Shown in pieces: positions 1 through 55,486 of a stretch of DNA of 64,000 nt. The stretch is from Clostridia bacterium (lineage in GTDB: Bacteria; Bacillota; Clostridia; UBA1212; DUPL01). The notes under the pieces are model-generated. The model was not told where the DNA came from. It saw only the letters and a list, made by a program, of their open reading frames with translations, and did not search any database. Numbering within the stretch: the stretch's first letter is position 1; every line of letters starts with the position of its first letter. The DNA lies in the NCBI GenBank assembly GCA_050951325.1, contig JBMNIW010000008.1:96266-160265 (forward strand), in the 5' to 3' direction. The position numbers were made by a program, and so were the translations under genes.

Positions 1-1
1 C

Positions 2-1543: not shown

Positions 1544-1557
1544 ATGGAGTGAAATTC

Positions 1558-2076
1558 ATGAAAAAAGACCAGTTTATACTCAGCGCTATTGTAAACAACC
1601 ATTTTGGTGTATTGACAAGGGTTTCCGGTCTCTTTGCCCGCAGAGGCTACAACATAGACAGCTTGAACGTAGGAGTTACTGAAAACCCTAAATATTCAAG
1701 AATGACCATAATTGTTACAGGCGACGAATACGTCAAGGAGCAGATAGTAAGGCAGCTGGCAAAGCTCCATGATGTAAAGAAGGTACAGATAATGCCTGAT
1801 GACAATACTGTTAAAAGAGAACACCTGCTGATAAAAATAAAGGCGAGCAGTGAAAGAAGAGCGGAAATAAACACTGCGGTAAGTATTTTCAGAGGCCAGG
1901 TGGTAGACTTTCACACAGACTCAATGACAGTTGAGATGACAGGTGAACCCTCCAAGGTTGACGCATTCATCAACTATTGTGAGGATTTCGGGATTTTGGA
2001 ATTATGCCGCTCAGGTGCCCTTGCTGTAATACGAGGCGAGGAAAGTTTGAGCATAGATGAAGAGGACAATGAATAA
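1558..2076 (+). CDS. ilvN: acetolactate synthase small (regulatory, ACT-domain) subunit
   Basis: MKKDQFILSAIVNNHFGVLTRVSGLFARRGYNIDSL… typical IlvN/IlvH; ATG at 1558 has GGAG 8 nt upstream (alternative GTG at 1540 overlapping ilvB stop). Confidence 0.85.
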   Translation: MKKDQFILSAIVNNHFGVLTRVSGLFARRGYNIDSLNVGVTENPKYSRMTIIVTGDEYVKEQIVRQLAKLHDVKKVQIMPDDNTVKREHLLIKIKASSERRAEINTAVSIFRGQVVDFHTDSMTVEMTGEPSKVDAFINYCEDFGILELCRSGALAVIRGEESLSIDEEDNE

Positions 2077-2101
2077 ACAATAATAAATATGGAAGGGGTA
2101 A

Positions 2102-3097
<996 letters not shown>

Positions 3098-3109
3098 GGG
3101 GAAATAAAA

Positions 3110-4762: not shown

Positions 4763-4777
4763 AAGGAGGGTATTAGA

Positions 4778-6283: not shown

Positions 6284-6293
6284 AGGTAGCTAT

Positions 6294-7913
6294 ATGGATA
6301 AAGTGTATGTGGAAATACTTGACTCAACGCTGCGTGACGGCGCACAGGGAGAAGGAATTTCCTTTTCAGTAAGTGACAAACTGAATATTGTGAAGGCATT
6401 GGACGCCTACGGTGTGGATTACATCGAAGCAGGCAATCCAGGTTCTAATCCAAAGGATTTGGAGTTCTTTGATAAAGTCTCCAAACTAAACCTCAAGAAC
6501 TCCAAACTCTGTGCCTTTGGAGCAACCAGACGCAAAGGAATAAGACCAGAGGAGGACGTAAACATCCAGTCCCTCCTCAAAGCGAACACTCCCGTGGTTG
6601 TAATCTTCGGCAAGTCTTGGGACCTGCATGTAGAAGAAATATTAAAAGCAACCCTTGAGGAAAACCTGGAGATTGTCAAGGATACTGTCGAATATTTGAA
6701 GTCAAAGGGCAAGGAAGTTTTCTTTGATGCAGAACACTTCTTTGACGGATACAGAGCAAACCCAGACTATGCCTTGGCTGTTCTAAAAGCGGCCTTGGAT
6801 GGAGGTGCGGACCTCCTCTGCCTTTGTGATACAAACGGCGGCTGCATGCCCGACTATGTTTATGGTGTCACAAAGAAAGTGAAGGAAACCTTTAAAAATG
6901 CACGTATTGGAATCCACTGCCACAACGACGCAGGTTGTGCCACTGCCAACACAATGCTGGCAGTAAAAGCAGGTGCAACCCATGTCCAAGGCACCTTTAT
7001 TGGGTTTGGTGAAAGATGTGGCAACGCAGACCTAAGCATAATCATACCAAACCTGAAATTAAAATATAACTATGAGTGCAGTGGAAAGCTTGACATGCTT
7101 TACACCATCTCAAGAAGCATAGCTGAAATATCAAACGTGCAAATAGACAGCAACAGGCCTTTCATTGGCTCAAGCGCATTTGCACACAAGGCAGGTATGC
7201 ACATAGACGGGGTATTGAAAATGCCCATGTCTTTTGAGCATATAGATCCACAAGCTGTAGGGAACAAAAGAAAGTTCCTGGCCTCCGAGGTCTCGGGAAG
7301 AGGAGCTATAATTGAAAAGGTTAAAAGCATCTGTCCACACCTGACAAAAGATTGTCCTGAGACCTCCCTTATACTAGAAAAACTGAAAGAGATGGAGCAC
7401 TTTGGCTATCAGTTTGAAGCAGCTGACGCCAGCTTCGAGCTTATGGTAAAGAGGCTTTTAGGTAGTCACAAGTCCCACTTTACCCTTGACTTCTATAAAA
7501 CCATTGGAGAGTTCCCTGCTCCAAATGGCGAAATGCAGTCCTCTGCAACCATAAGGGTAACCGTGGACGGCCAGGAGGAAATGACAGCCTCTATGGGCAA
7601 AGGTCCGGTTCATGCCCTGGATCAGGCTTTAAGAAAAGCCTTGAGTGTATTCTTCCCCGTCATAAAGACTATAAGACTTACAGACTACAAAGTGCGTGTA
7701 CTGGATCAGGAAATGGCCACTGCGGCAAAAGTACGCGTTTTGATTGAGAGCACCGACAACAAACAGACATGGACCTGTGTTGGTGTATCAAATGACATAA
7801 TAGAGGCAAGCTTGATTGCCCTGATAGACTCAATAGAATACAAATTATCATTATGTGAAGAGGAGGAAATAAAGAATGTCTGCAATGACGATGACTCAGA
7901 AAATATTGGCTAA
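6294..7913 (+). CDS. cimA: (R)-citramalate synthase (IPMS/homocitrate synthase family paralog)
   Basis: 539 aa; [17 protein letters not shown]… NPGSNPKD pattern typical of CimA-type paralogs in ilv-leu operons of anaerobes; substrate assignment is by family resemblance only. Confidence 0.65.
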
Positions 7914-9144
7914 ACATGCAAATCTTGATTCAGTGACTGCAGGACAGCTTGTGCTTGTGGACGTGGATATGGTATTGGGAAATGACATTACATCTCCCGT
8001 TGCTATAAATGAATTCAACAAATTGAACCTGGACAAGGTTTTTGACAAGGAAAAAGTAGCGCTTGTTATGGACCACTTTACACCAAACAAGGATATAAAG
8101 GCGGCCGAACAGTGCAGGCAATGCCGTGAGTTTGCCATGGAAATGAACATCACCAATTACTTCGAAGGTGGTAATGTAGGTGTTGAACATGCCCTATTGC
8201 CTGAAAAAGGACTTGTTACCGCCGGTGACTTGGTAATAGGTGCGGACTCCCATACATGTACCTATGGAGCCCTTGGAGCCTTTGCTACTGGTGTAGGTTC
8301 AACTGATATGGCATGTGGCATGGCAACAGGCAAAGCCTGGTTCAAGGTTCCTTCTGCCATCAAGTTTGTACTGACAGGCAAACCAAGCAAGTACTTGATG
8401 GGCAAAGACATAATTCTTCACATAATTGGAATGATTGGTGTTGACGGTGCTTTGTACAGATCCATGGAATTTACAGGCGACGGTCTTAAGTATCTTTCAA
8501 TGAGCGAAAGACTGAGCATGGCAAACATGGCAATTGAAGCTGGTGCAAAGAACGGCATTTTCGAAGTGGACGAAACAACCCTTGAATTCCTCAAGGAAGT
8601 TGGAGCAAAAGAACCAGATGTATACAAGGCAGACGAAGATGCAGAATATGACGAGGTATATACAATAGATCTTTCAAAACTGGGACCTGTTGTGGCCTTC
8701 CCTCACCTGCCAGAAAACACAAAGACATTTGATCAGTTTGATGACATCAAGATTGATCAGGTTGTAATCGGCTCCTGCACAAATGGAAGACTTGAAGACT
8801 TGAAAGTTGCAGCAGAAGTATTAAAGGGAAGAAACGTTGCGAGTCACGTAAGAGCAATCATAATACCAGCAACACCAAAGATCTATCTCGAAGCCCTTGA
8901 AAAGGGTTACCTGAAGATATTCATGGATGCAGGATGCGTGGTCTCCGCTCCAACCTGCGGACCATGTCTTGGTGGACACATGGGAATCCTTGCAAAAGGA
9001 GAAAGAGCGGTTGCTACAACCAACAGGAACTTCGTAGGTAGAATGGGTCATGTTGAATCCGAAGTATATCTTGCAAGCCCTTATGTGGCTGCTGCCAGTG
9101 CTATCACAGGCAAGATATCTCATCCAAGAGAAGTAATGGAATAG
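7876..9144 (+). CDS. leuC: 3-isopropylmalate dehydratase large subunit
   Basis: 422 aa aconitase-family; cluster-ligand Cys motifs ([16 protein letters not shown]); overlaps cimA 3' end; strong RBS GAGGAGGAAA. Confidence 0.9.
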
Positions 9145-9160
9145 GAAGGAGAGACGAACA

Positions 9161-9658
9161 ATGAATGCTTACGGTAAAGTTATAAAATACGGCGACAATG
9201 TGGATACCGACGTCATTATCCCTGCAAGATACCTTAACACTACTGACAAAAAGGAACTTGCCTCCCACTGCATGGAAGACATTGATCCTGATTTCAAGAA
9301 CAAGGTAGAACCAGGAGACATAATTGTTGCAGGAAGAAACTTTGGATGCGGTTCTTCAAGAGAACATGCCCCAATTGTAATAAAAGAAAGTGGCATTTCA
9401 CTGGTAATTGCAAAAAGCTTTGCCCGCATTTTCTACAGAAATGCAATAAATATCGGGCTTGCAATTATTGAATGTCCGGAATGCATTGATGAAATGGACG
9501 AAGGTGACAAGGTACGTGTCGATTTTGACAAAGGTGAAATCGTCAACGAAACCAAGAACAAAACTTATAAAGCATCTCCCTTCCCTCCTTTTATCCAGAC
9601 CATTATACAAAATGGCGGACTAATAAACTCAATTAAGAACAATGCCTTTGGAGGTTAA
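9161..9658 (+). CDS. leuD: 3-isopropylmalate dehydratase small subunit
   Basis: 165 aa aconitase swivel domain ([14 protein letters not shown]). Confidence 0.9.
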
Positions 9659-9659
9659 C

Positions 9660-10709
9660 ATGGACTTTAGAATTGCATTGATAAAAGGTGACGGCATAGG
9701 TCCTGAAATTGTGGACAGTGCCACCAAAGTACTCGACAAAATCGGCGAAAAGTTTAATCATAAATTCAACTACGTTGATCTTATTGCAGGAGGAGTTGCC
9801 ATAGATAAATATGGCCACCCTCTTCCTGAGGAAACTGTAAAAGAGTGCCTGAAAAGCGACAGCGTTATTCTAGGAGCTGTAGGTGGCCCTAAATGGGACA
9901 ACCTCCCAGGTGAATTAAGACCGGAAAGAGCTCTTCTGGGAGTAAGGAAAGCTTTAAACCTCTACTCCAACCTAAGACCAGCAAAGCTCTACAAGGCTCT
10001 TCAACAGTACTGCCCTCTTAGAACCGCATCAAGCTTTGACATACTAATTGTCAGAGAACTTACAGGCGGCATCTATTTTGGTGAAAGAGGAAGAAGAAAT
10101 ACCGAAAATGGAGTTGAAGCCTACGACACTGAGAGTTACAGTGTAATGGAGATTGAGAGAATAGGAAGAGTTGCTTTTGAAGCTGCAAGAAAAAGAAACA
10201 GAAAACTTACAAGCATAGACAAGGCCAATGTGCTTGAAAGCTCCAGACTTTGGAGAGAAACAATGCACAAACTTAAAGAGGAATACAAGGATGTTGAATA
10301 CAGCGATATGCTGGTAGACAACGCAGCAATGCAGCTTATTCGCGACCCATCCCAGTTTGATGTAATAGTTACCTCCAATATGTTTGGAGACATTCTATCC
10401 GATGAAGCTTCACAGCTTACAGGCTCAATTGGAATGCTTCCATCAGCATCTCTTGGAGAGGGAACACTAGGCCTGTATGAGCCAATACACGGTTCTGCTC
10501 CAGACATTGCAGGCACAAAGAAGGCAAATCCAATTGCCACAATTCTTTCAGCCAGCATGATGCTTAGATACTCTTTCAACCTTATCGAGGAAGCAGACGC
10601 CATAGACAATGCGGTGGAAAAAGCCCTTGATATAGGCTACACCACCAGCGACATAGGCGGCAATCTGAATACAGATGAGGTAACTCAAAAAATAATTGAA
10701 CTTATATAA
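9660..10709 (+). CDS. leuB: 3-isopropylmalate dehydrogenase
   Basis: [14 protein letters not shown]… isocitrate/isopropylmalate dehydrogenase family; ATG at 9660 preceded by GGAGG (longer ORF from 9642 overlaps leuD). Confidence 0.9.
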
Positions 10710-10712
10710 CCC

Positions 10713-10742
10713 AAAAGACCGGAACCCATCCGGTCTTTTTTA
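10713..10742 (+). terminator. rho-independent terminator of ilv-leu operon
   Basis: AAGACCGG-aacccat-CCGGTCTT hairpin followed by TTTTT. Confidence 0.75.
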
Positions 10743-10902
10743 GTATGTTGAATCTGCCATTGTTGTCGGACACTATTTCCCGTTCATATTATCTAAGCCA
10801 CCTCTTTATAAAATTGTATTTCTTCCCATTTCAAACATAGTCCAAAGTCAACCAATATAAAAAAGCACGGTCACTTCAACCATGCTGTTTTCTTTCCTTT
10901 TA

Positions 10903-11292
10903 TTAGTTTTTATGTTTATCCAGAAAATCCTTTATCTTCTGTATTGCTTCCCTGCTTATAACGTGTTCTATGGCGCAAGCATCTTCATTTGCTGTTTCAT
11001 CATCAACACCAAGGACATCCGTAAAAAGCTTCTTAATTACTTCATGCCTACTGGTTAAAAGCTTTGCTGTTTCAATACCGTTCTCTGTAAGGAAAACATC
11101 CTGATATTTTTCACTCTTTACATAACCTGCATTGACAAGAACACTAATTGCATTGTTTACGCTTGCTTTTGACACATTTAACTTTGCCGCGATATCGCTT
11201 AAACGAACTCCTGAGTGCTCATCATTGTTGTTGACAGCAATTTCGTATATGGTTTCAAGGTAATTTTGCATTGCAATAGTAAGCTTTTCCAT
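10903..11292 (-). CDS. DtxR/MntR-family metal-dependent transcriptional regulator (short form, no SH3 domain)
   Basis: 129 aa; winged-HTH (RLSDIAAKLNVSKASVNNAISVL) plus dimerisation helix with His/Glu positions (TSRHEV…, AIEHVIS) aligning with MntR metal ligands. Confidence 0.7.
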   Translation of the reverse strand: MEKLTIAMQNYLETIYEIAVNNNDEHSGVRLSDIAAKLNVSKASVNNAISVLVNAGYVKSEKYQDVFLTENGIETAKLLTSRHEVIKKLFTDVLGVDDETANEDACAIEHVISREAIQKIKDFLDKHKN

Positions 11293-11300
11293 TTCTCCTC

Positions 11301-12203
11301 CTAATGAAATACAAGTTTTCCAACCACATGAGAAACAGGAATAAGGCCTTCATGTCTTGAATCGCGACTTACATTCCTGTTGTCCCCCATTACGTAAATA
11401 TAACCTTCCTCGACTGTAACTGTTACACCATTAGGGTATGTAAACACATCCTGGGTGTAGATATAGTCTTCCTTGAGTTTTTGTCCGTTTCTGTAAATCG
11501 CGTTGTCCTTGAACTCAATAACGTCCCCTTCTACACCAATTACCCTCTTTATCCAAAACACATCGACTTCGTATTCAAACAAATCTTTTGTAAGCAAGTT
11601 GTATTTTAGAGTCTCCGCAACGGATTTCACAAAAGTTCTTTCTTCTTTAATATTACTGTCTATTACAACAATATCGCCAAATTTAACATCGCCAAAAACG
11701 TAAGGAAGTCTTGATATATATACTGTTTCATTATCAACTAAAGTGGGAACCATTGAATCTCCGGAAACCTTGCTGGGTCTTAGAACATACATATTGATTA
11801 AAAGTGCCAGAACAAAAGCGAACGTTATGGTAAATATCCAACTAAATATTTTTCTTGTAACCTTCTTGATTATAACTGAGCCGTTGTTGAAACTGTCCTT
11901 TTCCTCAATTTCGACAACTTCAATGTCGTTATCGTCGTCTTCATCATTACTGATATCATCATAGTTATCTTCATTTACATCTTCTACAATGTATTCTTCC
12001 GGGTTGGAATCGAAAATCGGGGGAAAACTCATTTCCTTGTTTTCAGTAAATCCAAACTCTAGTAGTTCAATCGCCGATATTCTATTAGGCTCTTTCTGCT
12101 CACCAAATCTGAGCGACTCAAATTCAATATCATCCGTCGCCTTGCTGCGCAGATATTCATTCTTGTCATACACTGCCTTCAATTTGAATCTCATGCAATA
12201 CAC
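11301..12203 (-). CDS. lepB: signal peptidase I (S26) with long acidic N-terminal extension
   Basis: Catalytic Ser box SGDSMVPTL, box E GDNRNVSRDSR, single TM before catalytic domain; N-terminal 70-130 aa D/E-rich (start uncertain: GTG 12203, ATG 12194 or ATG 12032). Confidence 0.75.
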   Translation of the reverse strand: MYCMRFKLKAVYDKNEYLRSKATDDIEFESLRFGEQKEPNRISAIELLEFGFTENKEMSFPPIFDSNPEEYIVEDVNEDNYDDISNDEDDDNDIEVVEIEEKDSFNNGSVIIKKVTRKIFSWIFTITFAFVLALLINMYVLRPSKVSGDSMVPTLVDNETVYISRLPYVFGDVKFGDIVVIDSNIKEERTFVKSVAETLKYNLLTKDLFEYEVDVFWIKRVIGVEGDVIEFKDNAIYRNGQKLKEDYIYTQDVFTYPNGVTVTVEEGYIYVMGDNRNVSRDSRHEGLIPVSHVVGKLVFH

Positions 12204-15645: not shown

Positions 15646-16908
15646 TCATTCCATTCCAACAATCCTTATATTGAGGGTTCCTATTGCAGTATCAATCTCG
15701 TCTACCAAAACAATCCACTTGTCACTTACATACATAAGATTATTGTCAACTGATACTCCTTCAATCAAAAAGAAATCCATTGTTGTTAAATCCACCATGA
15801 ACAAGCCTCTCCAGCCGTTCAGATCAAAAACAAATACTTTGTCCGAGCAAAAGGCAGGCTCCCCTTTATAGGATTCCAGTTCGGACATTCGAACAGAATA
15901 TGCATAACCCAGTATACTCAAGTCCATTTTTGATAATGCTTTGTACGTATGACTTGCAAAATACAATGTATTGTCATATATCCCAATACCACTAAAACTG
16001 TTAAGACTTACATCTATATTCTGCTGTTTTTTTGTATCCATGTTGTATACCTTAATGGAAGTCTTGTTCACATTCAGGAATACCAGGTAGTTTTCACTCA
16101 TGTAAAAAGGTTCAGGAATATATGGTATACCTACATTCAAGGAACCGTGAACCGGTATCTCATAAACCATGGATTTATCACCTGTTATCATGTTTATCAG
16201 GTAATAGCGGATATAGGATATTGAGCCTGCTAATGCTTCTGCATATACAACGCAGTCTTCTGTAACCATGTATACATCAATCAGATTATCCATATCAATC
16301 GGCAGTATTTTTTCATTATCCCAGAAATAGGAGTTGCAGTAGTACCTGTCCCCTGACTTGTATACAACGTGTTTCTTCCCTGTTTTTAGATTTTCCACAC
16401 CCGATGATATCCTTGTCAAGCTGCCTGACTTTTTGTCAACATTGTACAGACTGTATAACATGCTTGATTCATCATGCACAGATAAATAAATATCGTCACT
16501 TGCTATTACGAAATCCAACTGCTTTTTGCTTGCTATCTTTTCAGACAGCTGTAGCTTTATGCTGCTGGTCCTGGCATTCAATATTTTGTAAGGTACCGGA
16601 GTTGGGCTTGATGTAGGCTCAGGAGTAAAGGTGGGACTCATGTATGTTGCGGTTGCATATACTGTAGTTACAGGTTCCTCGGTAGGTGTATTGATCAGCA
16701 CAGGATCTTTGTTGTAGTCATTTGCTACATAGTTTAGTAGGATCACTGCAGCCACCAGCAGCCAGCAGGCAGCTGCAATCGTTCCTAAAATTTCAGCACC
16801 TTTAACCTTTTTCAAAGATTTTCTGGACTCAAGCTTCTTTACTCTTTCAATAAGCTGATTGTCCGCCTTTATTTTTCTTATCGTATCCTTTATATCCTTT
16901 CCAGTCAT
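15646..16908 (-). CDS. membrane-anchored DUF5050-like repeat protein (cytoplasmic N-term ~45 aa, 1 TM, Thr/Pro linker, extracellular repeat domain); third gene of ECF sigma operon
   Basis: TM AILGTIAAACWLLVAAVILL, linker TPTEEPVTTVYATATYMSPTFTPEPTSSPTP, repeats DIYLSVHDESSMLYSLYN / DVYMVTEDCVVYAE / NTLYFASHTYKAL / NLMYVSDKWIVLVD similar in style to 13113-14201 protein; 4-nt overlap with upstream gene. Confidence 0.5.
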   Translation of the reverse strand: MTGKDIKDTIRKIKADNQLIERVKKLESRKSLKKVKGAEILGTIAAACWLLVAAVILLNYVANDYNKDPVLINTPTEEPVTTVYATATYMSPTFTPEPTSSPTPVPYKILNARTSSIKLQLSEKIASKKQLDFVIASDDIYLSVHDESSMLYSLYNVDKKSGSLTRISSGVENLKTGKKHVVYKSGDRYYCNSYFWDNEKILPIDMDNLIDVYMVTEDCVVYAEALAGSISYIRYYLINMITGDKSMVYEIPVHGSLNVGIPYIPEPFYMSENYLVFLNVNKTSIKVYNMDTKKQQNIDVSLNSFSGIGIYDNTLYFASHTYKALSKMDLSILGYAYSVRMSELESYKGEPAFCSDKVFVFDLNGWRGLFMVDLTTMDFFLIEGVSVDNNLMYVSDKWIVLVDEIDTAIGTLNIRIVGME

Positions 16909-18161
16909 GTTTCAGCCCATCTCCTTTTCCTTCTATACAAGGTTAGCGACAACAGGACTAAAGGAACCATAATAACAAAATATGTGTTATCGTTTGTTTG
17001 TGGGTTTTCAAGGAAAGGATTTCTTCCTCCAAACAGGTAATCGTAGTAGTCGCCGCCACTTAATCTCCACCCGTCTTCAGTTTTTACGAACTCTGCCACA
17101 AGATGCACTTTCTCAATATTCTCATACATTGGGTCATGATGGTATTCCAGCACTATCTCTGCCTGTGCCTTTTCCGCATCATTGGATATTATTCGACACA
17201 TTTCCGGGTAAAACTTCAAAGGAATATACTGAGCTCCGATATAGAGGAGGTATACTCTGTCACCTTCTCTAATAAAGCCCTTGTTATTCTCTTTTCCAAG
17301 CACTTCATTTATTTTGTCTTCTGTAAACACCCTTTTCGCCAGGTTTACCCAGTCATCATAGAATTGAAAACCCCTGCAGGGAACTTTTACAAACCCAAAT
17401 TCGCTTTTTATGTCTGCATCTTCACTGCCCAAGCCAGACAAATTGAACAAAAACTCGTTATATGCTCCATTTTGCAAAAAGAAAGACAACTGATACGCAT
17501 TTTGAGCAAGGATCCTAACTTCATCCAGTGTTATTTCATCACCATTTTCTTTGGGCATCACTCCAAAATACTTTGGAACATAATTTACATCGCATACCCT
17601 CACACCTTCTTCAGTCTTCCTAATATATACACCTATATGCCTTACATATATCTCTATATCATTAAAACCATGATCGTAGTAAAGATAAGGAACAATAACG
17701 TACGCTTCTCCATCCTTGTTGTATTCCACTCTAATATTCTCCATCAGCTTTTCGGGCAGAGAATACACATCCTGCTCATCACTTTTACGGTAGTACACCT
17801 CATCTCCCTGAACAACAATCTTTTTATATTTCTCCAATTCCTTGTCAATCAAATTTTGCATTTCTTCGGTATAAAAAGACCTCATCTTTTCTTCAAGTTG
17901 CTCAAGGCTTTTGTAATCCCCTATTCCGGGATAGTATTTATCAGCACCAGAGGTAACAGGTGATGCATTTTCATCAATAATGTTGTCAGTATAAAGGAAA
18001 GTATTAGAAAAAAACTCAAATGACTCTACGATAAGGCTTTCCATTTCGCTTTCACTAATTGCATTGTCATTGGAATAAACACAAACACCAAACACAGTTG
18101 CAATCACACATATCAAGATAAAAATCCTTTTCAATTCACTCACCTCATATGTTTTCCTCAT
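16905..18161 (-). CDS. secreted cell-wall-anchored protein with sortase-B-type sorting signal NPQTN
   Basis: N-terminal signal peptide; C-terminus …ENPQTNDN-TYFVIMVPLVLLSLTLY-RRKRRWAET (motif + hydrophobic span + basic tail); overlaps ECF sigma gene by 17 nt. Confidence 0.55.
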   Translation of the reverse strand: MRKTYEVSELKRIFILICVIATVFGVCVYSNDNAISESEMESLIVESFEFFSNTFLYTDNIIDENASPVTSGADKYYPGIGDYKSLEQLEEKMRSFYTEEMQNLIDKELEKYKKIVVQGDEVYYRKSDEQDVYSLPEKLMENIRVEYNKDGEAYVIVPYLYYDHGFNDIEIYVRHIGVYIRKTEEGVRVCDVNYVPKYFGVMPKENGDEITLDEVRILAQNAYQLSFFLQNGAYNEFLFNLSGLGSEDADIKSEFGFVKVPCRGFQFYDDWVNLAKRVFTEDKINEVLGKENNKGFIREGDRVYLLYIGAQYIPLKFYPEMCRIISNDAEKAQAEIVLEYHHDPMYENIEKVHLVAEFVKTEDGWRLSGGDYYDYLFGGRNPFLENPQTNDNTYFVIMVPLVLLSLTLYRRKRRWAET

Positions 18162-18681
18162 AGACTTTCAGCATCTCTCTTGCTCTTTGCAATCTCTTCT
18201 TTACCGCAGAAGAAGAAATATTCAGTATCTTGGCTATTTCATCCACCTTGTACTCTTCCACGTAATAAAGTAGAATGACGGCTTTGTACTTTTCTGGGAG
18301 TTTGGAAACTGCATCAAATATGGAAAAGTCCTTGTATGTAAAGTCGTATACTCCCAAATCCTCCATACTGACATATTCATGTCTTTTCCTGGCTCTTAGT
18401 TTGTTTTTGCATACGTTGATGCAAACACGAAGAAGCCATGCCTTTTCGTGTTCCTCATCATTGAATTTGGGCTTTTTGTAAAGGTATCTCATAAATGTAT
18501 CCTGCACCGAATCTTCGGCATCCTGCTTGTTGCGCAACATGGACAAGGATAACCTGTAGAGCATATCTCCATATTTTTCGACAGGAATCAATAACTTCCA
18601 ACTCCCTTCAACATATACACACATGAAGCAAGCATTTGGTGACACAATTTTGATTATATTACCAAAAAAACACAATATCAA
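18145..18681 (-). CDS. ECF-type RNA polymerase sigma-70 family factor
   Basis: Region 2 (DAEDSVQDTFMRYL…AWLLRVCINVCKNKLRARKR) and region 4 HTH (VEEYKVDEIAKILNISSSAVKKRLQRAR); true start probably internal (ATG 18621 or TTG 18591 with GAAGGGAG RBS). Confidence 0.8.
   Translation of the reverse strand: MILCFFGNIIKIVSPNACFMCVYVEGSWKLLIPVEKYGDMLYRLSLSMLRNKQDAEDSVQDTFMRYLYKKPKFNDEEHEKAWLLRVCINVCKNKLRARKRHEYVSMEDLGVYDFTYKDFSIFDAVSKLPEKYKAVILLYYVEEYKVDEIAKILNISSSAVKKRLQRAREMLKVYEENI
18653..18681 (-). promoter_or_regulatory. candidate sigma-A-type promoter of ECF sigma operon (TTGATA-17-TATAAT)
   Basis: Reverse complement reads TTGATAttgtgtttttttggtaaTATAAT upstream of the sigma gene. Confidence 0.4.
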
Positions 18682-36991: not shown

Positions 36992-38305
36992 TTATGTCAC
37001 ATAATGTTTATTGAATATTGCCCTCATCTCATCAACTTTTCCTGCTGCTATGATATAGCTGTATTCAAAAGGTTCAAAAGATTTAAGCTCAAAGGTTCTC
37101 AAGGGAGCAACATAGCTGGTTGATGGAGCGTAAGAGCTCTTGCTCCTGTCCGCCATATAAATGCCTGCAAGCAATATTTCCGTATCGGCAGCATAAAGAC
37201 CTATACCGTAGTGATCTTTATCAACCCATGCACACCATACTTCTGTATTACCTTCCTTGACTCTGAAATATGCATCCTTGTTGTTAGCCCAGAAAGGTAG
37301 ATTTTCTTTGTATGTCAGCGCATCGTTTGTCCAAGGATTGTTTCCATTGTAAAAGACAAAGGTGTCAAGATAACTGATTACATAGAACGCAGGCATTTCC
37401 TGATGTCTTGGCTTTGCCTTGTATCCTGAGAAGTCAACAAACCTGTTGGATACCTTTATACATTCTTTTTCAATGGAATACTCATTTTCCATATAACATA
37501 TTGTATACTCTGCCTGCTTTGCCCAGTCCCTGGGTCTGCATTTTATGTATATTCTGTCTTCTTCAATCTTGAAATCAACTATCTTGCTCTCATTGCCATA
37601 CATGTCTCCTCCCTGAACCGGATTGTATGGCCAGCGCGCTCCATTGTACGTTCCTGGTTCATATGGTTTTTCTCCTGTTCCGTAATATGCCTGCTGAACC
37701 AGCCTGCCTGTGTCATGCCTGTTTAGAAGATTCGTTATTGACTCATCCTTGTTCTTTTTGTCTTCAATATAATTAAGACTTCCACCCCAAAGCAAATCAA
37801 CACCAACCTTGTAGCGACTGTTCTCAATAAATACGGTGGTTTTAGGTACCTTTACCTTTAATATTTCGACATTCTTCAACTTAAACTCGCAAGATACGTC
37901 CTTTAAGACTGTCAAAGTTATCTTTTTTATACTCTTAGCCGTTTTCCCCGCAAAGAATCCGTCAATCAAGGATGAGAAAGCCATATCCTTGCCAGGTTCA
38001 AGAAAAAAAACTTCTTCGTATTCCTTATTCAACATATACGTTACTTTTCCTTTTATGTACCCTGTGGAATCGTAATATATACTGAACTTGTTAAACTCCA
38101 TTTCCTTGTCAAGCAGAATCTCAAAATTATCTTTAATTGTGTATACACCATCTTTATAAGTCACGTAATTTCTAAACTGCATAACTTTGACCATACTCCT
38201 CCCCAATACATCCTTGTCACCCATATCACAAAAAACCAAAACAAAACACAATGGTATCAACATTAGGCTCAGATATCTCAATCTCCACACTCCCAAACTC
38301 AACAA
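36992..38305 (-). CDS. hypothetical secreted/envelope protein
   Basis: 437 aa; N-terminal hydrophobic signal-like segment; start overlaps radical SAM gene stop by 7 nt (coupled). Confidence 0.35.
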   Translation of the reverse strand: MLSLGVWRLRYLSLMLIPLCFVLVFCDMGDKDVLGRSMVKVMQFRNYVTYKDGVYTIKDNFEILLDKEMEFNKFSIYYDSTGYIKGKVTYMLNKEYEEVFFLEPGKDMAFSSLIDGFFAGKTAKSIKKITLTVLKDVSCEFKLKNVEILKVKVPKTTVFIENSRYKVGVDLLWGGSLNYIEDKKNKDESITNLLNRHDTGRLVQQAYYGTGEKPYEPGTYNGARWPYNPVQGGDMYGNESKIVDFKIEEDRIYIKCRPRDWAKQAEYTICYMENEYSIEKECIKVSNRFVDFSGYKAKPRHQEMPAFYVISYLDTFVFYNGNNPWTNDALTYKENLPFWANNKDAYFRVKEGNTEVWCAWVDKDHYGIGLYAADTEILLAGIYMADRSKSSYAPSTSYVAPLRTFELKSFEPFEYSYIIAAGKVDEMRAIFNKHYVT

Positions 38306-41523: not shown

Positions 41524-41646
41524 TTATTCGCATAGAAAAATATGCTACTACAATATATTCAAAGGAGAAATCATTTGTTAAAAACAGTTGAACGATGAAG
41601 AGATTTGTGATATAATGACGATAAATTAGAAACAGGAGGGAAAATC

Positions 41647-42138
41647 ATGAAAAAAGCATTTTTCTTCATCGTATTAACAATACTAACACTAAGTATGGTT
41701 GCGGTATACGCAAGCAATATTCAGATTACATTGGACAAACAGGAATATGTTGTTGGGGAAACTGTAACAATTACCTACTCAGATGCTGATGGCGATGCCG
41801 AGGCATGGTTTGCCATATACCCACAAGGAGAAGAGCCTTACCAGTCATATCCGGGAACGGAAAAAGTATGGGCTTACGCAAACAGTAATTCTGAACAAGC
41901 TGGTTCAGAACCTGTTACAGAAGGAACTGTAACCCTGAGCACTGAAGGACTTGCTCCAGGCGAATACAGATGCTCATACTTTGTTGACATTGGTTACAAT
42001 GTTGGTGCTACCGTCACTCTAAAGATAGTTGAGGAAAGCACAAACCCGGAAACATCGGACGCCATTGCGTACATACCTTTTATGATTGGAGCAATCTTGT
42101 CACTCATGGTCTTGAAGCGTAAAGCTGTAAACATATAA
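41647..42138 (+). CDS. small secreted protein with C-terminal sortase-type sorting signal (NPETSD + TM + KRK)
   Basis: Signal peptide MKKAFFFIVLTILTLSMVAVYA; C-term NPETSDAIAYIPFMIGAILSLMVLKRKAVNI. Confidence 0.45.
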   Translation: MKKAFFFIVLTILTLSMVAVYASNIQITLDKQEYVVGETVTITYSDADGDAEAWFAIYPQGEEPYQSYPGTEKVWAYANSNSEQAGSEPVTEGTVTLSTEGLAPGEYRCSYFVDIGYNVGATVTLKIVEESTNPETSDAIAYIPFMIGAILSLMVLKRKAVNI

Positions 42139-42183
42139 GCAAAGAGGAAAGGACATATCAAAACACAAATATGTCCTTTTTCC

Positions 42184-47639: not shown

Positions 47640-48614
47640 CTATAATATCATGCTTAAAATCTCTTCTCTTGAAAGTGTTGAAATCAAGGAAATTGGCACA
47701 TCGATTATGGTATGGCAGCCAATACTTCCTTGTTGTGACAATTTATAAGCAGCTCTTGCATATGCAACCAGAATAGCAGAGGTGAATTCTGGGTTTGACT
47801 CAAGTTTAATGGAAAACTCAATAATATGTTGATTATCTTCCGAAGTCTTGCCACTGGTTATGACAAAACCACCATGAGGAAGCTTTGCATGGTTTTCCAG
47901 AAGCTCTTCTTTGGAAACATACTCTACAAAGGTATCGTAATCAGCAAAATATCCAGGCATGTTTACAATTTCTTTTTTGATTTTCTCCTTGTCAGCTTCT
48001 TCCTTTACCACCACATAACAATGCCTTTCATGCATTTCCCTTTTTGTAAAGTCGGGAGTTTCTCCGTTTCTTACACGATTAACAACATCTTCTACAGGAA
48101 TAGTATATTGTCTTGCATCCAAAACACCATCTACTCTTCTAACTGCATCAGAATGACCCTGACTCACTCCAGGTCCGTAAAATGTATACCCTTTTCCGTT
48201 AGGCAGAATACTCAAACCGAGCAGTCTGTTTAAAGAGAAAATACCCGGGTCCCATCCAACAGAAATTATTGAAACTGTATTGTTTTCCTTTGCTACCTTG
48301 TCCACATTATTAAAATGTTCAGGTATTTTAGAATGATTGTCATAGCTGTCGACTGTATTGAAATATTTAGTGAAATATGGAGTTTGCTCAGGCAGGTCCG
48401 TGGCACTACCTCCACAGAGCACCATAACATCTATCATGTCTTTATACTCAATAACATCGTCAGGATGCAAAACCCTGACGTTTGACATAGTCTTGATATT
48501 TTTTCTTCTTGAAACGATGCAAACCAGCTCCATATCAGGACTGTTTAAAACATGCATCTCACTTGCCTTTCCCAAATTTCCGTATCCTACTATTCCTACT
48601 CTGATTTTACTCAT
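47640..48614 (-). CDS. ddh: meso-diaminopimelate D-dehydrogenase
   Basis: 324 aa; near-collinear with Corynebacterium Ddh (RVGIVGYGNLG…CGGSATD…VGWDPGIFS…GPGVSQGHSDA…HGGFVIT). Confidence 0.85.
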   Translation of the reverse strand: MSKIRVGIVGYGNLGKASEMHVLNSPDMELVCIVSRRKNIKTMSNVRVLHPDDVIEYKDMIDVMVLCGGSATDLPEQTPYFTKYFNTVDSYDNHSKIPEHFNNVDKVAKENNTVSIISVGWDPGIFSLNRLLGLSILPNGKGYTFYGPGVSQGHSDAVRRVDGVLDARQYTIPVEDVVNRVRNGETPDFTKREMHERHCYVVVKEEADKEKIKKEIVNMPGYFADYDTFVEYVSKEELLENHAKLPHGGFVITSGKTSEDNQHIIEFSIKLESNPEFTSAILVAYARAAYKLSQQGSIGCHTIIDVPISLISTLSREEILSMIL

Positions 48615-50432: not shown

Positions 50433-51329
50433 CTAGAATGAGTATACTTTGCGTTTTACAACAACCGCGCATGCCATAGCAGCGAGGATTGCAACCATAA
50501 CTATTGCACTATCACCTGTTGGTGGGTTTTCTGTACCTGGCTCTTCTGTTTCTGGCTCAGGTTCTGTCAATGCAGCGTTCAAGTTGTTAAGATGTGTTCC
50601 AAGATCTTCTTCGGATGTGTTCAAGATGAAAGCCTTGAGGTCATCGCCTACTGCATTCATAACAGCATCACATTTAGCCTGGTCATAAATGGTTACATCT
50701 TCAGCTTTGGCTTCGTAATACTTGTTTACGAAGTTCAATGCATTTTGTCCAGCACCCTGAAGCACGTTGATCCACATTCTGTAACCAGCACCCAGGTTGG
50801 AAGATTCGCCTGCTGCGGCTTTTTCTTCGTTGTACTCAGCAAAAGTCTTGTCATACAGGTGAGCTTCGATATTTCTTCCTTCAATAACTTCCGTGTATGG
50901 AACCAAACGAGGCTCTACTCCAGCTTCTATTTTGCATGTGACAAAATATGTACCTGCTGGATATACATTGTCAAACTCAAATACAACATTGGGGCTCCAG
51001 TCAGTTGATGTAAATTCTTTCTGCTCCAGAAGCTCCTTGTCTTCACGGCTAGTATTCCATTTGTAGAGGCTCATTTTGAATTGATGTCCTGCAATTACGG
51101 TTTGAACCTGTACACCTACGAAAAGTTCGCCTTCCAATATATCAAACTTCATACCAGCGTAGTTGCCCCATCCCATATGCAAATAAGTTGAACCATTAAA
51201 ACCTGGTGCAACATCACCTTTAACCAGTTCAATGGCTTTTTCTTCTACAGCTGCGTTTGAGAACACAGTCATCATTGACATTAACAGTGTTAATACTACA
51301 ATGAATATCAAGCCTTTTTTCATTTTCAT
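50433..51329 (-). CDS. secreted wall-anchored protein A1 (sortase-type signal NPPTGDS + TM + KRK)
   Basis: Signal peptide, ~260-aa domain, C-term NPPTGDSAIVMVAILAAMACAVVVKRKVYSF; paralog of 52370-53245. Confidence 0.45.
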   Translation of the reverse strand: MKMKKGLIFIVVLTLLMSMMTVFSNAAVEEKAIELVKGDVAPGFNGSTYLHMGWGNYAGMKFDILEGELFVGVQVQTVIAGHQFKMSLYKWNTSREDKELLEQKEFTSTDWSPNVVFEFDNVYPAGTYFVTCKIEAGVEPRLVPYTEVIEGRNIEAHLYDKTFAEYNEEKAAAGESSNLGAGYRMWINVLQGAGQNALNFVNKYYEAKAEDVTIYDQAKCDAVMNAVGDDLKAFILNTSEEDLGTHLNNLNAALTEPEPETEEPGTENPPTGDSAIVMVAILAAMACAVVVKRKVYSF

Positions 51330-51504
51330 AATACTACCTCCTGTATTTTACTTAAAAGCTAATGATTGTTTCATCACTTTCGTTGGATAACTACATATAT
51401 ATTCTATCTTAGTAGAATTCAAATACAATTGCTTATTTACAGTTCTAAATTGATTGTTTTACAGATTATACACAAATTAAATACTGGAATAAATTTTTTG
51501 GCAC

Positions 51505-51537
51505 AAAAAACAGCCAATGTCGACATGACACTGGCTG
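51505..51537 (-). terminator. intrinsic terminator (copy 1 of duplicated terminator)
   Basis: CAGCCAATGTC-gacat-GACACTGGCTG with U-run on minus strand; near-identical element at 54550-54583. Confidence 0.6.
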
Positions 51538-51557
51538 AACAAATTGCTTTCTAGTTT

Positions 51558-52247
51558 TTATCTTCTATTGGGTGGCTGATAGTTCTCAGCATCCTCCATT
51601 GTTTTAAAGAAGCCCATAAAATCGATTGTTATAGTAGAGTCTATTGGAGGATTCCATAAAATGTCCGCTCGGAATTCGGTTATAGTTTGCTTGTCAGGCT
51701 TTAATTCTGAAAAATCGAGATATACTTCCTGCCAATCCTCACCTGAGTCAACATTAAATTTAACATGCTGTCCAGCTCCGGTTATAGCTTCTCCGTCACA
51801 TGCAACGTAGAACTCACCATCAGAAATCCCAGCCGTATGCTTGAATATCATCTTGAATATTGGATACTCATGTATATCCAATGCACCGTCCGGCATGGGT
51901 AAGTTGAAAATAGGATCGTGAAAATCAACAACAGTCAGATGCAGGCCTTCTTCAGTAAACTCAGCTTCTGCATATGTTGGATTAATATCGTTCCCTTCAA
52001 ACATAGTATCAATTATATTCTCACCTTCAAGAGCAAAACGATACAATACAGCATCCACACCCTCATCCGGATCCGGAGTTGGTTCTGGTGTTGGAGTTGG
52101 TGTTGCTGTTGGTTCAGGTGTATCCGTCGGTGCAGGTGTATCTGTTGGCTCTGGAGTCTTGTCCGTACCACCGCCACCTTTACATCCTATGAAAGATACA
52201 ACCATCAAAGCAATAAGTAGCAGTAACAACAGTTTCTTGATTTTCAT
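51558..52247 (-). CDS. lipoprotein B1 with Pro/Thr-rich linker (TPEPTDTPAPTDTPEPTATPTPTPEPTPDPDEG) and ~170-aa C-terminal domain
   Basis: Lipobox SFIGC; paralog of 54599-55276. Confidence 0.45.
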   Translation of the reverse strand: MKIKKLLLLLLIALMVVSFIGCKGGGGTDKTPEPTDTPAPTDTPEPTATPTPTPEPTPDPDEGVDAVLYRFALEGENIIDTMFEGNDINPTYAEAEFTEEGLHLTVVDFHDPIFNLPMPDGALDIHEYPIFKMIFKHTAGISDGEFYVACDGEAITGAGQHVKFNVDSGEDWQEVYLDFSELKPDKQTITEFRADILWNPPIDSTITIDFMGFFKTMEDAENYQPPNRR

Positions 52248-52369
52248 GTTTATTCCTCCAAATTAAAATAATTTGTAATATTATAAATAATTGTAAAACT
52301 TAGTCAAGTTTGTTTGCAATTTATACAAAAAATATTAGCTGCCTCTTCATGGCAGCTAATATTTTTTCA

Positions 52370-53245
52370 TCATTTCTTTGCAATTCTAACCATCTTCTTG
52401 TTCAGCAAGACAGCTGTTAATACAACAAGCAAGATTAAATACAAGCAGCCTGTATCGCCCGTAGGTGGGTTCACGTCATCCTGCAAAGCAGCGGTAAGAT
52501 TGTCAAGCTGAGTCTTAATTTCTGCATTGGATGCATTCAAAAGAAAAGTCTTCAAATCATCTCCTACCGCATTCATCACCGCATCATATTTGGCCTGGTC
52601 GCTTACTGTTACTCCTTCAGCCTTTGCCTCGTGATACTTCTTTACAAAAGCCTGAGCATCCGCTGTAGCTCCAGTAAGAAGTTTGATTGACATATCAAAA
52701 CCTTCACCAAAATCCTTGCCGCTTGTAGCACTCATATCGTCAAAAGTCTGGTCATACTGATACGCTTTTATATTCCTTCCTTCAACAACCTTTTTGTAAA
52801 CATACAAATAAAGTTCAGTACCGTTATCCGCAAATGTTTCTATTTCAAGGTAGTACTTACCGGCAGGATATACGGTATCAAAATCATATACGACCTGCTG
52901 CCAGTCCAATGACGTAAGCGTCTTTGACTCGAGCAGTTCCTTATTGTCAGTACTTCCATTCCATCTATACAAATTTGCCTTGATGGGCTTTCCTGCAACA
53001 ATAGTCCTAAAAGTCACACCACAAAGCAATTCATCATTATTAACTTCAAAAGTCATACCTGGATAGTTGGCCCAGAGAAGTACAAGAAGTCCTCCGCCGG
53101 TATGGCCTTCAGCCACCGCATCACCTTCGACAACCACCAGGCGCACTGTATCTTCCTGCATTTGTGCATTGACTCCCAGCAACATAAAAGACATCAGAAT
53201 TGACAATGCAACAATAAATATAGTTAATCTATGCCCTAGTTTCAT
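52370..53245 (-). CDS. secreted wall-anchored protein A2 (NPPTGDT + TM + KK)
   Basis: Signal peptide; domain collinear with A1 (…LYRWNGS…VYPAGKYYLEIE…DQAKYDAVMNAVGDDLKTF…). Confidence 0.45.
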   Translation of the reverse strand: MKLGHRLTIFIVALSILMSFMLLGVNAQMQEDTVRLVVVEGDAVAEGHTGGGLLVLLWANYPGMTFEVNNDELLCGVTFRTIVAGKPIKANLYRWNGSTDNKELLESKTLTSLDWQQVVYDFDTVYPAGKYYLEIETFADNGTELYLYVYKKVVEGRNIKAYQYDQTFDDMSATSGKDFGEGFDMSIKLLTGATADAQAFVKKYHEAKAEGVTVSDQAKYDAVMNAVGDDLKTFLLNASNAEIKTQLDNLTAALQDDVNPPTGDTGCLYLILLVVLTAVLLNKKMVRIAKK

Positions 53246-53325
53246 TACATACCTCCATAATTTTATTACAGTATTATTATCTCAACAATTACGTTATAAA
53301 TAATGGAAGTATATTGAATTATCAG

Positions 53326-53898
53326 TCAATTAGTCATATCATATAAAATTGGAATGCTTTTTTCATTAACAAGATACGTGTAAAATCTGTCATCAAACCA
53401 GAGTGGTGCCGTATCCTTGCTGAAAATCAGCGGCATTCTGTTATGTATAAAGGCAATATTTTCAGCCCGATCCCGGGTAATCATGGTTACCTCATCCTTT
53501 TCCATTCTTTTAAATCCAGCTATGAACAATATGCCCTCTTCACTGAACAATCTGTACTTTTCAGATCTTTTGTCAGGCAGTTTTCTCCACTCATAGTAGG
53601 ATTTCGCTGGAATGAGACACCTATCCCCTTTTATATGTGGCGCAAAGAATCTGCTGGTTAAAACAGTTTCGCTTCTTGCATTGAATATGACCTTTTTTTC
53701 GTCATCCCACTTTTGAAATCCCCACTGCATCAGCTTCAAATGCTTCTCCTTCGTAATAACCGGTATTTTGGAAGAAGGATAAGCATCCCTTCCCAGAACA
53801 GTCATATCCTCCTTCGATAATAGAACAGACACGTCCTGTATTATCTCTCTTATCTCCTCTATTTCGTCCTCCGTAAATATTGTGAATCTTCCACACAT
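53326..53898 (-). CDS. SOS-response-associated peptidase (SRAP/YedK/HMCES family), abasic-site DNA-protein crosslinking
   Basis: Starts MCGRF (Cys2 nucleophile), 190 aa. Confidence 0.8.
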   Translation of the reverse strand: MCGRFTIFTEDEIEEIREIIQDVSVLLSKEDMTVLGRDAYPSSKIPVITKEKHLKLMQWGFQKWDDEKKVIFNARSETVLTSRFFAPHIKGDRCLIPAKSYYEWRKLPDKRSEKYRLFSEEGILFIAGFKRMEKDEVTMITRDRAENIAFIHNRMPLIFSKDTAPLWFDDRFYTYLVNEKSIPILYDMTN

Positions 53899-53901
53899 AC
53901 C

Positions 53902-54525
53902 CTACACTCCTGACATTTTTAAAAAGTTTTTCATATTCGTTTTCTCAGCTTCCAAATCTGAACCTTTTCTTCCAAGTCTATCACAAAAACCCAACAAAGC
54001 AACATCAAAAACATCCACATCCCTTTTCATACCCTCCATATCTTTGAAGGGTAGATCCTTGAGAACATAGAGAATATGCATATGGTATTTTACCAACAAG
54101 GCCACATTGCCAATAAAGGCAAGGTCGTCCGTAAAACATGACAAAAACTCTTTTGCCAGCCTTTCACCTGCCACATCGTGGCCATAGGCGGTTATTCTTC
54201 CCTTTCTTACCTTTGTTGTCACCGCCTTGCCAACATCATGCAAAAGAGACGCCCACATGAATACTCTTTCATCCGAGCTTCTATCCCTAACTTTTGCAGC
54301 TTCATCAACAACCATCATTGTATGGTTCCACACATTGCCTTCTGCATGATATTTTGGGGACTGCCCAACTTCCTTAAGTCTCTTAATCAAAACAAAAGGG
54401 TGTTTGGAAAACTCTTCCTCAAAACAAATCTCATTAAGATATATTGAAGGCTTTTCATCAGTCAATAGATGTTCCTCAATAGACAAATATAACTTAAACA
54501 CGTTCCACCTTTTTTCTGATATCAT
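53902..54525 (-). CDS. HD-domain phosphohydrolase
   Basis: H…HD motif (…WNHTMMVV…ASLLHDVGK…), 207 aa; 4-nt gap to SRAP gene. Confidence 0.7.
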   Translation of the reverse strand: MISEKRWNVFKLYLSIEEHLLTDEKPSIYLNEICFEEEFSKHPFVLIKRLKEVGQSPKYHAEGNVWNHTMMVVDEAAKVRDRSSDERVFMWASLLHDVGKAVTTKVRKGRITAYGHDVAGERLAKEFLSCFTDDLAFIGNVALLVKYHMHILYVLKDLPFKDMEGMKRDVDVFDVALLGFCDRLGRKGSDLEAEKTNMKNFLKMSGV

Positions 54526-54549
54526 TTCTCACAAGCCTTAAAAATATGC

Positions 54550-54583
54550 AAAAAATCAGCCAATGTCATTAGGACACTGGCCG
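54550..54583 (-). terminator. intrinsic terminator (copy 2)
   Basis: CAGCCAATGTC-attag-GACACTGGCCG with U-run on minus strand. Confidence 0.55.
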
Positions 54584-54598
54584 ATAGAAAAGTTAATA

Positions 54599-55276
54599 TT
54601 ATCTTCTGTTTGGCGGTATGTAGTTTTCAGCATCTTCCATTGTCTTGAAAAACCCAAAGAAGTCAATAACTATCTCTGAATCAACAGGAGGATTGCCCAA
54701 GATATCAGCACGGAACGTAGTAATGGTCTGTGCTTCTGGCTTTTTCTCAGACCAGTCAATATATATCTCTTGCCAGTCTTCGCCTTTATCTACTGTGTAT
54801 GTGTAGTTCTGCTGAACGCCTGTTATGGCTTCACCATCAAACCCTACATAGAACTCACCCGTGGTGACTCCAGCATTATGCTTGAGCAACATTTTGAATA
54901 TTGGATACTCAGTAATATCTATCGCTCCATCGGGCAATGGTATAGTGAAGTATGGGTCGCTTTGGTTAAGAACAATTATTGTCAACCCTTCATCCGTGTA
55001 ATCAAGATCCGCATTCATGACACCTTGCACCATTCCATACCTGAAAAACGCCTCTTCACCTTCAAGAGCAAAACGATAGAGGATCGCATCAAGACCTTCA
55101 TCCGGATCCGGCGTTGGTTCCGGGGTCGGAGTTGGTGTGGGTGTGGGTTCTGGCGTATCCGTTGGGACTGGAGTTGCAGTAGGTTCGGGAGTCTCCTCCT
55201 CTCCTCCCTTGCATCCGATGAAAGATACTACCATAAGGCAAACTAGAAGCAAAAGCGAAAATTTCCTAACTCTCAT
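54599..55276 (-). CDS. lipoprotein B2 (paralog of B1)
   Basis: MRVRKFSLLLLVCLMVVSFIGC lipobox, same TPEPT linker and C-terminal domain (…FFGFFKTMEDAENYIPPNRR); ATG 55276 with GGAGGA RBS. Confidence 0.45.
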   Translation of the reverse strand: MRVRKFSLLLLVCLMVVSFIGCKGGEEETPEPTATPVPTDTPEPTPTPTPTPEPTPDPDEGLDAILYRFALEGEEAFFRYGMVQGVMNADLDYTDEGLTIIVLNQSDPYFTIPLPDGAIDITEYPIFKMLLKHNAGVTTGEFYVGFDGEAITGVQQNYTYTVDKGEDWQEIYIDWSEKKPEAQTITTFRADILGNPPVDSEIVIDFFGFFKTMEDAENYIPPNRR

Positions 55277-55486
55277 ATTCTTTCCTCCAATCATTATTAT
55301 CTTAACAGTATTTTAAAATATTAGCAAAATATAGTCAATACTTTTGTTGTTCGAAACATAAAATAGACTTATATTATTAATAATAAATACATTAATAACA
55401 TGTATAATATAATTTGGTGGTCTGTTGACCATTTTTCATATAAATGCTAAGATTAAATGTCATGAAATTTTGTTTGGGAGGGTAAC

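Follow-up and report, generated by a model that had tools for sequence, protein, structure and literature searches.

Class B sortases recognize signals described as “variations of NPXTG or NPQTN” (PMC11987632), and screens for substrates routinely include both NPxTG and NPQTN as alternative motifs (PMC8286594), so that tails of this type are counted here as a known kind. The residue at P4 is the determinant separating Asn-type from Ser/Pro-type class B enzymes (PMC5118464). The SrtB enzymes of B. anthracis and S. aureus serve one or two NEAT/heme uptake proteins whose genes share an operon with srtB (PMC3297441). In C. difficile, SrtB is the single, housekeeping sortase, belongs to class B, and has eight dispersed non-heme substrates (PMC4155245); its cleavage between T and G and the linkage of the product to mDAP were proven by mass spectrometry for CD2831 (PMC4591827). 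For full activity, B. anthracis SrtB depends on the P2′ Asp of DNPKTGDE (PMC11987632), and Asp directly follows the motif in seven of the eight C. difficile SrtB substrates (PMC4155245).

The window, i.e., the whole 64-kb stretch of DNA analyzed here, comes from an uncultured Clostridia bacterium and encodes four secreted proteins with N-P-x-T-type C termini, and a fifth candidate is encoded on another contig. Like C. difficile SrtB substrates, these proteins are dispersed, diverse, non-heme, tripartite, and unlinked to a sortase gene, and in other lineages the NPQTN protein of the window has homologues with PPKTG[DE] or SPATGD, as in C. difficile. Unlike the (S/P)PxTG substrates of that species, the window proteins have Asn rather than Ser or Pro at P4 and Gly, Ser, or Asn (His in a relative) at P1′. 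The N-P-x-T core, Gly or Asn at P1′, and an acidic P2′ are shared with the SrtB-IsdC systems of B. anthracis and S. aureus (NPKTG-DE and NPQTN), but the putative substrates in this genome, in contrast to those of the Isd system, number at least five, lack NEAT domains, and have neither isd genes nor a sortase gene beside them. Overall, the situation looks functionally like that of C. difficile but with Asn of the B. anthracis/S. aureus type at P4. It is an ordinary Gram-positive surface protein feature of known type that is missed by current annotation models.

Four predicted C-terminal sorting signals

The original prediction was that four proteins end in an NPxT-type motif followed by a hydrophobic span and a K/R-rich tail, and both the coordinates (16905-18161, 41647-42138, 50433-51329, and 52370-53245) and the translations of the four open reading frames (ORFs) were confirmed. 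The target of this study (41647-42138, forward strand) is a 163-amino-acid (aa) secreted protein consisting of a signal peptide (aa 1 to 23), an Ig-like β-sandwich (aa 25 to 128), a disordered linker, NPETSD, a transmembrane (TM) span, and a basic tail. Its sorting motif, NPETSD (P4 to P2′), occupies aa 133 to 138 (42043-42060, forward strand, checked by translation) and is followed at 42061-42135 by the hydrophobic span AIAYIPFMIGAILSLMVL, a TM helix in the AF2 model, and the basic tail KRKAVNI.

The remaining three proteins are encoded on the reverse strand. The 418-aa secreted protein at 16905-18161, which has a C-terminal “GWRLSGG” domain, carries NPQTND at aa 386 to 391 (16989-17006), then a 17-aa span and RRKRRWAET. 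The 298-aa secreted protein at 50433-51329, for which the AF2 model, fold search, and translation give a lectin-like jelly-roll, a helical bundle, a linker, and an anchor, carries NPPTGD (50511-50528), an 18-aa TM span, and KRKVYSF. Its 291-aa paralogue at 52370-53245 carries NPPTGD (52454-52471), a 17-aa TM span, and NKKMVRIAKK. All four motifs lie 31 to 33 aa from the C terminus, and the basic tails read KRK, RRKRR, KRK, and KK..K.KK. The hydrophobic span is present in each case, but it comprises 17 to 18 uncharged residues rather than the approximately 20 first estimated.

All four N termini are signal peptide-like as read from the sequence, with a basic n-region, a hydrophobic core, and a small-residue cleavage site, and the AF2 models place an N-terminal helix at the signal peptide position. 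The criteria applied to the tails were those of PMC4155245, namely, an xPxT-type pentapeptide 17 to 45 residues from the C terminus, a hydrophobic span, and at least two basic residues. All four window tails have these properties, along with every sequence-testable feature of the generic definition of a sortase substrate. With respect to class B targets, each has Asn at P4, Pro at P3, and Thr at P1 (NPETS, NPQTN, and NPPTG twice) followed by an acidic P2′, and the Isd-type class B operon context (srtB with NEAT/Isd genes) is absent from their surroundings. In the AF2 models, the motif sits in a low-confidence or disordered linker between the folded domain and the C-terminal TM helix; in the target, pLDDT is >90 at residues 25 to 128, the low-confidence linker covers residues 131 to 144, and the helix covers residues 142 to 161. 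This modeled position is where a sortase would need the motif to be.

A scan for xPxT[GSNA] followed by a hydrophobic span and a basic tail in the 216 window ORFs of ≥60 aa returned no N-P-x-T tail beyond these four. The same scan picked up an antisense ORF with an SPNTS tail, which was set aside as obviously spurious and lacks the Asn. Given the window's own amino acid composition, NP.T[GSN][DE] has a per-position probability of 2.3e-6, and 0.0036 motifs are expected in the C-terminal zones of 60 window proteins versus the four observed; at least one motif in the last 50 residues was obtained in just 0.65% of shuffles. One further NPWTND is internal to a membrane protein without a Pfam match (36992-38305), 115 residues from the C terminus, and is considered a chance match because neither a TM span nor a basic tail follows it in the sorting signal arrangement. 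Judged by their sequences, the four C termini appear to be genuine N-P-x-T-type sorting signals with all three parts.

Protein families and conservation of the motif

The four proteins had been taken to be unrelated. Those encoded at 50433 and 52370 are, in fact, paralogues (47% identity, E = 8e-79), and the window therefore contains three substrate families rather than four. Pfam and NCBIfam give no significant domain for any of the three families. Proteins identical to the target are HHT93447.1 (“Clostridiaceae bacterium”) and MGI6529678.1 (“Clostridia bacterium”), both from metagenome-assembled genomes (MAGs), and the target protein is recorded on 79 contigs, the longest of 2.51 Mb. The window region is also present on a 268-kb ENA contig, a 241-kb JGI contig, and the NCBI MAG GCA_033809705.1. 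Among billions of proteins, the target has 3 matches, the NPPTG family 8, and the NPQTN family 23, and all three substrate families are narrow and lineage specific.

The target has a paralogue in the same genome, MGI6529267.1 (47 to 48% identity), encoded on another contig of the same JGI sample. Its tail (NPPTSD, a TM span, and KRK) makes it a fifth substrate candidate elsewhere in the genome. In an alignment of the two proteins (48% identity), N, P, T, S, and D of the motif are invariant, whereas the sequences of the TM span and of the linker ahead of the motif differ. The paralogue is encoded at 10001-10495 of locus L011 (JGI 3300053716, Ga0534105_00155), where its tail reads NPPTSDS. Its neighbors are proteins of 869, 282, 301, 316, and 269 aa without a Pfam match and an AraC-type regulator, and one member of its cluster is named “DUF2141 domain-containing protein” at NCBI.

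Conservation in the two other families follows the same pattern. Members of the NPQTN family at 40% identity end in NPQTND, NPVTND, or NPETHD, and N385, P386, T388, and D390 are invariant. In the NPPTG family, N267, P268, T270, and G271 are invariant and are followed by D or E at P2′; orthologues that are 75 to 98% identical carry NPPTGE and others NPQTGD. The Asp after the motif was originally described as invariant, which holds for all four window tails but not for these close orthologues with Glu; the position is acidic rather than strictly Asp. Nor is the Asp unusual, as had been suggested, given its presence in seven of eight C. difficile SrtB substrates and its requirement by B. anthracis SrtB (PMC4155245, PMC11987632).

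A “GWR[IML]SGG” C-terminal domain is common to more distant homologues of the NPQTN protein, whose tails are of the types NPDTGD, NPQTSD, NPNTSD, NPSTGD, NPDTSD, PPKTGD/E, SPATGD, APATGD, and GPDTGD. These tails cover the full spread between the “N-type” signals and the “(S/P)-type” signals of C. difficile. P4 is Asn in every tail examined from the organism itself, and P or S is found at P4 just in homologues of other lineages. Two neighboring genes of a relative (L015 2-2433; Logan SRR31093300) encode proteins with NPKTGD and NPVTND tails, and Gly and Asn at P1′ thus coexist side by side. The conservation of the motif, its placement in the AF2 models, and the matches to curated models together say that it is functional.

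Curated models and annotation

The curated hidden Markov models (HMMs) approached by the tails are exclusively NPXTG, srtB_target, LPXTG anchor, and IsdC C-terminus models. NF033846 (“Rumino_NPXTG,” NPXTG-anchored protein) is the top match for the NPPTGD tail and describes the same variant signal, NPxTG followed by a TM span and a basic tail, but the window proteins differ from it in scoring below its cutoff of 23.5 bits. The protein at 50433-51329 reaches 15.9 bits at full length and 21.3 bits as an isolated tail, and the NPQTGD tail of an orthologue reaches 22.2 bits, also below the cutoff. NF033846 has no match to the other three window proteins, and NPxTS and NPxTN tails go undetected. The LPXTG anchor model TIGR01167 gives 15.0 bits for the window's NPQTN tail (cutoff, 15.9 bits) and 19.0 bits for the orthologue's NPQTGD tail, which passes. 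The latter tail scores 17.8 bits against TIGR03063 (srtB_target; cutoff, 18.15 bits), which matches none of the window tails. Several tails align weakly to the IsdC C terminus. These nearest curated HMMs and the assignment of such motifs in the literature (PMC11987632) support the earlier view that the N-P-x-T signals are of class B type.

No window tail is at or above any curated cutoff, and the NPETSD tail of the target matches no sorting signal HMM at all; the proteins are consequently annotated as hypothetical. PGAP-type models thus miss these tails, and wall-anchored proteins of this lineage are labeled “hypothetical protein.” Such tails would be picked up by a somewhat broader model, NPxT[GSN][DE].

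Search for a sortase

The absence of a sortase gene from the window, as originally stated, is borne out: six-frame hmmsearch and phmmer searches of the 64 kb with SrtB and SrtA probes gave only matches with an E value of >0.2. The SrtB probes were the catalytic domains of the C. difficile (5gyj), B. anthracis (1rz2), and S. aureus (1ng5) enzymes from the PDB, and the SrtA probe was the S. aureus enzyme. The precomputed Pfam calls, which cover roughly 1-12,000 and 31,650-64,000 of the window and 10 kb beyond each end, agree and contain no PF04203. Furthermore, six-frame SrtA/SrtB and Pfam searches found no sortase at the locus of the MGI6529267.1 paralogue or in the metagenome loci, of which a scan with the target family had yielded four, none with a sortase. 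Altogether, about 130 kb of the organism's DNA (the window and about 70 kb more), roughly 5% of a genome of ~2.5 Mb, contains no sortase.

A protein search with a SrtB profile built from C. difficile, B. anthracis, and S. aureus gave, among its best 120 matches, only proteins of Bacilli or C. difficile and none from this organism. None of 10 metagenome-derived sortase matches has an accession from the series used for the window-bearing MAGs (MGI652xxxx/HHT9xxxx). A scan of a collection of genome contigs with the NPQTN family returned one marginal fragment and did not recover this species. Beyond the right end of the window, large proteins without a Pfam match look cytoplasmic. As no sortase was found in the DNA examined, we infer the existence and class of the enzyme from its putative substrates.

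Predicted anchoring and alternative explanations

The four C termini are probably cell wall sorting signals for a sortase that is encoded elsewhere in the genome, is of class B type, and has a general, housekeeping role on dispersed non-heme substrates. Asn at P4 and the acidic P2′ would point to a class B-type enzyme of the B. anthracis or C. difficile kind. The precursors would be exported by the Sec pathway via the N-terminal signal peptide and retained in the membrane by the 17- to 18-residue hydrophobic span and the K/R tail. The sortase is predicted to cut after Thr of NPxT|[G/S/N][D/E] and to join the Thr carboxyl to the peptidoglycan stem peptide, probably at mDAP as in C. difficile, so that Ig-like, lectin-like, and “GWRISGG” domains would be displayed on the wall. 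Among the window's gene products is a meso-diaminopimelate dehydrogenase (PF16654, DAPDH_C; 47640-48614), which is consistent with mDAP-type peptidoglycan and with mDAP as the acceptor, as in C. difficile.

Against this explanation stand the lack of a sortase gene in the roughly 130 kb examined and the below-cutoff scores of all window tails. In addition, the occurrence of Ser, Asn, or His at P1′ in a single lineage calls for one enzyme of broad specificity or for more than one enzyme. NPQTN is not cleaved in vitro by C. difficile SrtB, as a comparison with the literature indicates, and the enzyme here would therefore need its own P4 and P1′ tolerance, unless more than one enzyme is involved. 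In Listeria, the motifs of Lmo2185 and Lmo2186 are NAKTN and NPKSS, respectively. Both proteins, which are named in PMC11987632, are SrtB substrates of Listeria monocytogenes. One class B enzyme that accepts varied P1′ and neighboring residues is a precedent for Gly, Ser, and Asn in one genome. The L. monocytogenes system differs in having two substrates only, whose genes both belong to the srtB operon and which are both tied to the uptake of heme or iron.

The tails could also be sortase signals for an enzyme of a class A-, D-, E-, or F-like type that has evolved to prefer Asn at P4. No sortase of this organism was seen in the searches, the LPXTG anchor model TIGR01167 scores tails at 15.0 to 19.0 bits, and homologues from other lineages have N, P, S, A, or G at P4, which implies that P4 specificity drifts easily; these observations would all fit such an enzyme. 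It is nevertheless unlikely, because Asn at P4 with an acidic P2′ is the published signature of class B substrates, the best motif-specific HMM matches are NPXTG, srtB_target, and the IsdC tail, and the sole characterized clostridial housekeeping sortase is of class B.

Plain uncleaved TM anchors, with NPxT[GSN]D as a conserved turn or linker without a processing role, are harder still to reconcile with the data and very unlikely. The same hexapeptide occurs at the same distance from the C terminus in three unrelated families against a chance expectation of 0.004, it is fixed while the adjacent linker and TM sequences diverge, and it matches a known enzyme recognition site residue for residue. 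These points weigh against the uncleaved state more than the lack of a sortase in about 130 kb of the organism's DNA and the lack of any sorting signal HMM match in three of the four window tails speak for it. The substrates of exosortase, archaeosortase, and rhombosortase systems likewise combine a motif, a TM span, and a basic tail in a tripartite arrangement, but reading of the tails by such machinery is scarcely credible, since NCBIfam models of the PEP-CTERM, GlyGly-CTERM, and PGF-CTERM types gave no match at an E value of ≤10, sortase-type models alone matched, and no such enzyme is present in the precomputed Pfam calls for the stretches covered.

Wall anchoring by a class B-type housekeeping sortase, as originally proposed, is thus retained as the probable reading for non-heme proteins, and the passengers indeed lack NEAT domains; the implied novelty is not, as this role has already been shown in C. 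difficile (PMC4155245, PMC4591827). NPxTG/NPQTN anchors, an acidic P2′, and a housekeeping class B sortase in Clostridia are known already, and the general significance is small. The one modest twist is a relaxed P1′ (G, S, or N) beside a fixed acidic P2′. The occurrence of G, S, and N at P1′ provides a small natural data set on class B recognition beyond the pentapeptide, which is relevant to sortase-mediated ligation (PMC11987632). It is conceivable, if doubtful, that the lineage anchors a large, lineage-specific surface proteome via one class B-like sortase of specificity NPxT-x-[D/E], with strict Asn at P4, the acidic P2′ as the primary determinant, and an almost free P1′ (G, S, and N; H in a relative). 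Such an enzyme would represent a distinct specificity subclass that NF033846, TIGR03063, and TIGR01167 fail to call and might be of use as an orthogonal ligation enzyme.

Passenger domains

No NEAT domain is found in the passengers and no isd or heme uptake genes are found nearby; the passengers are non-heme proteins. Foldseek searches with the β-sandwich of the target returned generic relatives only, i.e., macroglobulin MG domains, SKICH, a porphyran-binding CBM, and S-layer Ig domains. The NPPTG paralogues match lectin-like jelly-rolls, including the lectin-like domain of C. difficile Cwp84 and PHR domains, and have a helical bundle in addition. The passenger domains have no significant Pfam or NCBIfam match, and the fold searches gave generic β-sandwich and lectin-like matches only.

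A metagenome-derived protein of >1,200 aa (L019 584-4231) contains at least three tandem copies of the target's β-sandwich (…AWIAIYPKG…, …CWVGVYTLG…, and …AWVGIYEG…). These are followed by many Ig-like repeats and a very basic C terminus without an NPxT signal.

Genomic context

A promoter-like site, TTGAAC-17-TATAAT with an extended −10 TG, is located ~30 nucleotides upstream of the target start codon (41588-41616, forward strand); it matches the consensus, and the count of such sites across the region is not above that in shuffles. A 12-bp hairpin lies between the target and a convergent GH3 gene (42148-42179); the scan assigned it to the reverse strand, and it is a possible terminator. The promoter-like site, together with the hairpin, suggests that the target is its own transcription unit.

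The NPQTN protein gene belongs to an apparent three-gene operon with overlapping stops and starts (15646-18681, reverse strand). Its start overlaps the end of a gene for an extracytoplasmic function (ECF) sigma factor (18145-18681, reverse strand; Sigma70_r2/r4_2, E about 1e-18). The third gene (15646-16908, reverse strand) encodes a 420-aa protein with a cytoplasmic N terminus of ~40 aa, one TM span, and a large extracellular part, which could be an anti-sigma factor. The position of a wall anchor-type protein between a sigma factor and a putative anti-sigma factor is an unusual gene order. No sigma factor homologue was found adjoining the NPQTN protein homologues in L014 or L015, both of which are short contigs. 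Three 88-aa ORFs considered as possible paralogues are unrelated (5 to 7% identity).

The two NPPTG genes form part of a duplicated two-gene module (50433-55294, reverse strand), in which each NPPTG lectin-like protein is paired with a paralogous lipoprotein. The lipoproteins (51558-52247 and 54599-55294, reverse strand) are 65% identical and have the lipobox FIGC, a Pro/Thr-rich linker, and the C terminus MEDAENYxPPNRR. The members of the second pair are separated by SRAP and HD domain genes. The NPPTG protein and the lipoprotein may constitute a surface pair, with one partner anchored in the wall and the other in the membrane.

On the JGI contig (L002 1395-3494 and 18786-19681), a number of genes found whole in other assemblies are each broken into two pieces, including those for an aminotransferase, acetylglutamate kinase, and the NPPTG protein (63 and 235 aa). 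These splits are probably assembly or sequencing frameshifts rather than real pseudogenes. Just upstream of position 1 of the window, beside an ilv/leu operon, a strain difference is apparent between L009 (1-3900) and L010 (1-3500): a type I-C-like cas3-cas5d-csd1 set is intact in the NCBI MAG, and the ENA contig instead has IS91-type and DDE transposase genes beside a Cas3 gene that runs off the end of the locus.
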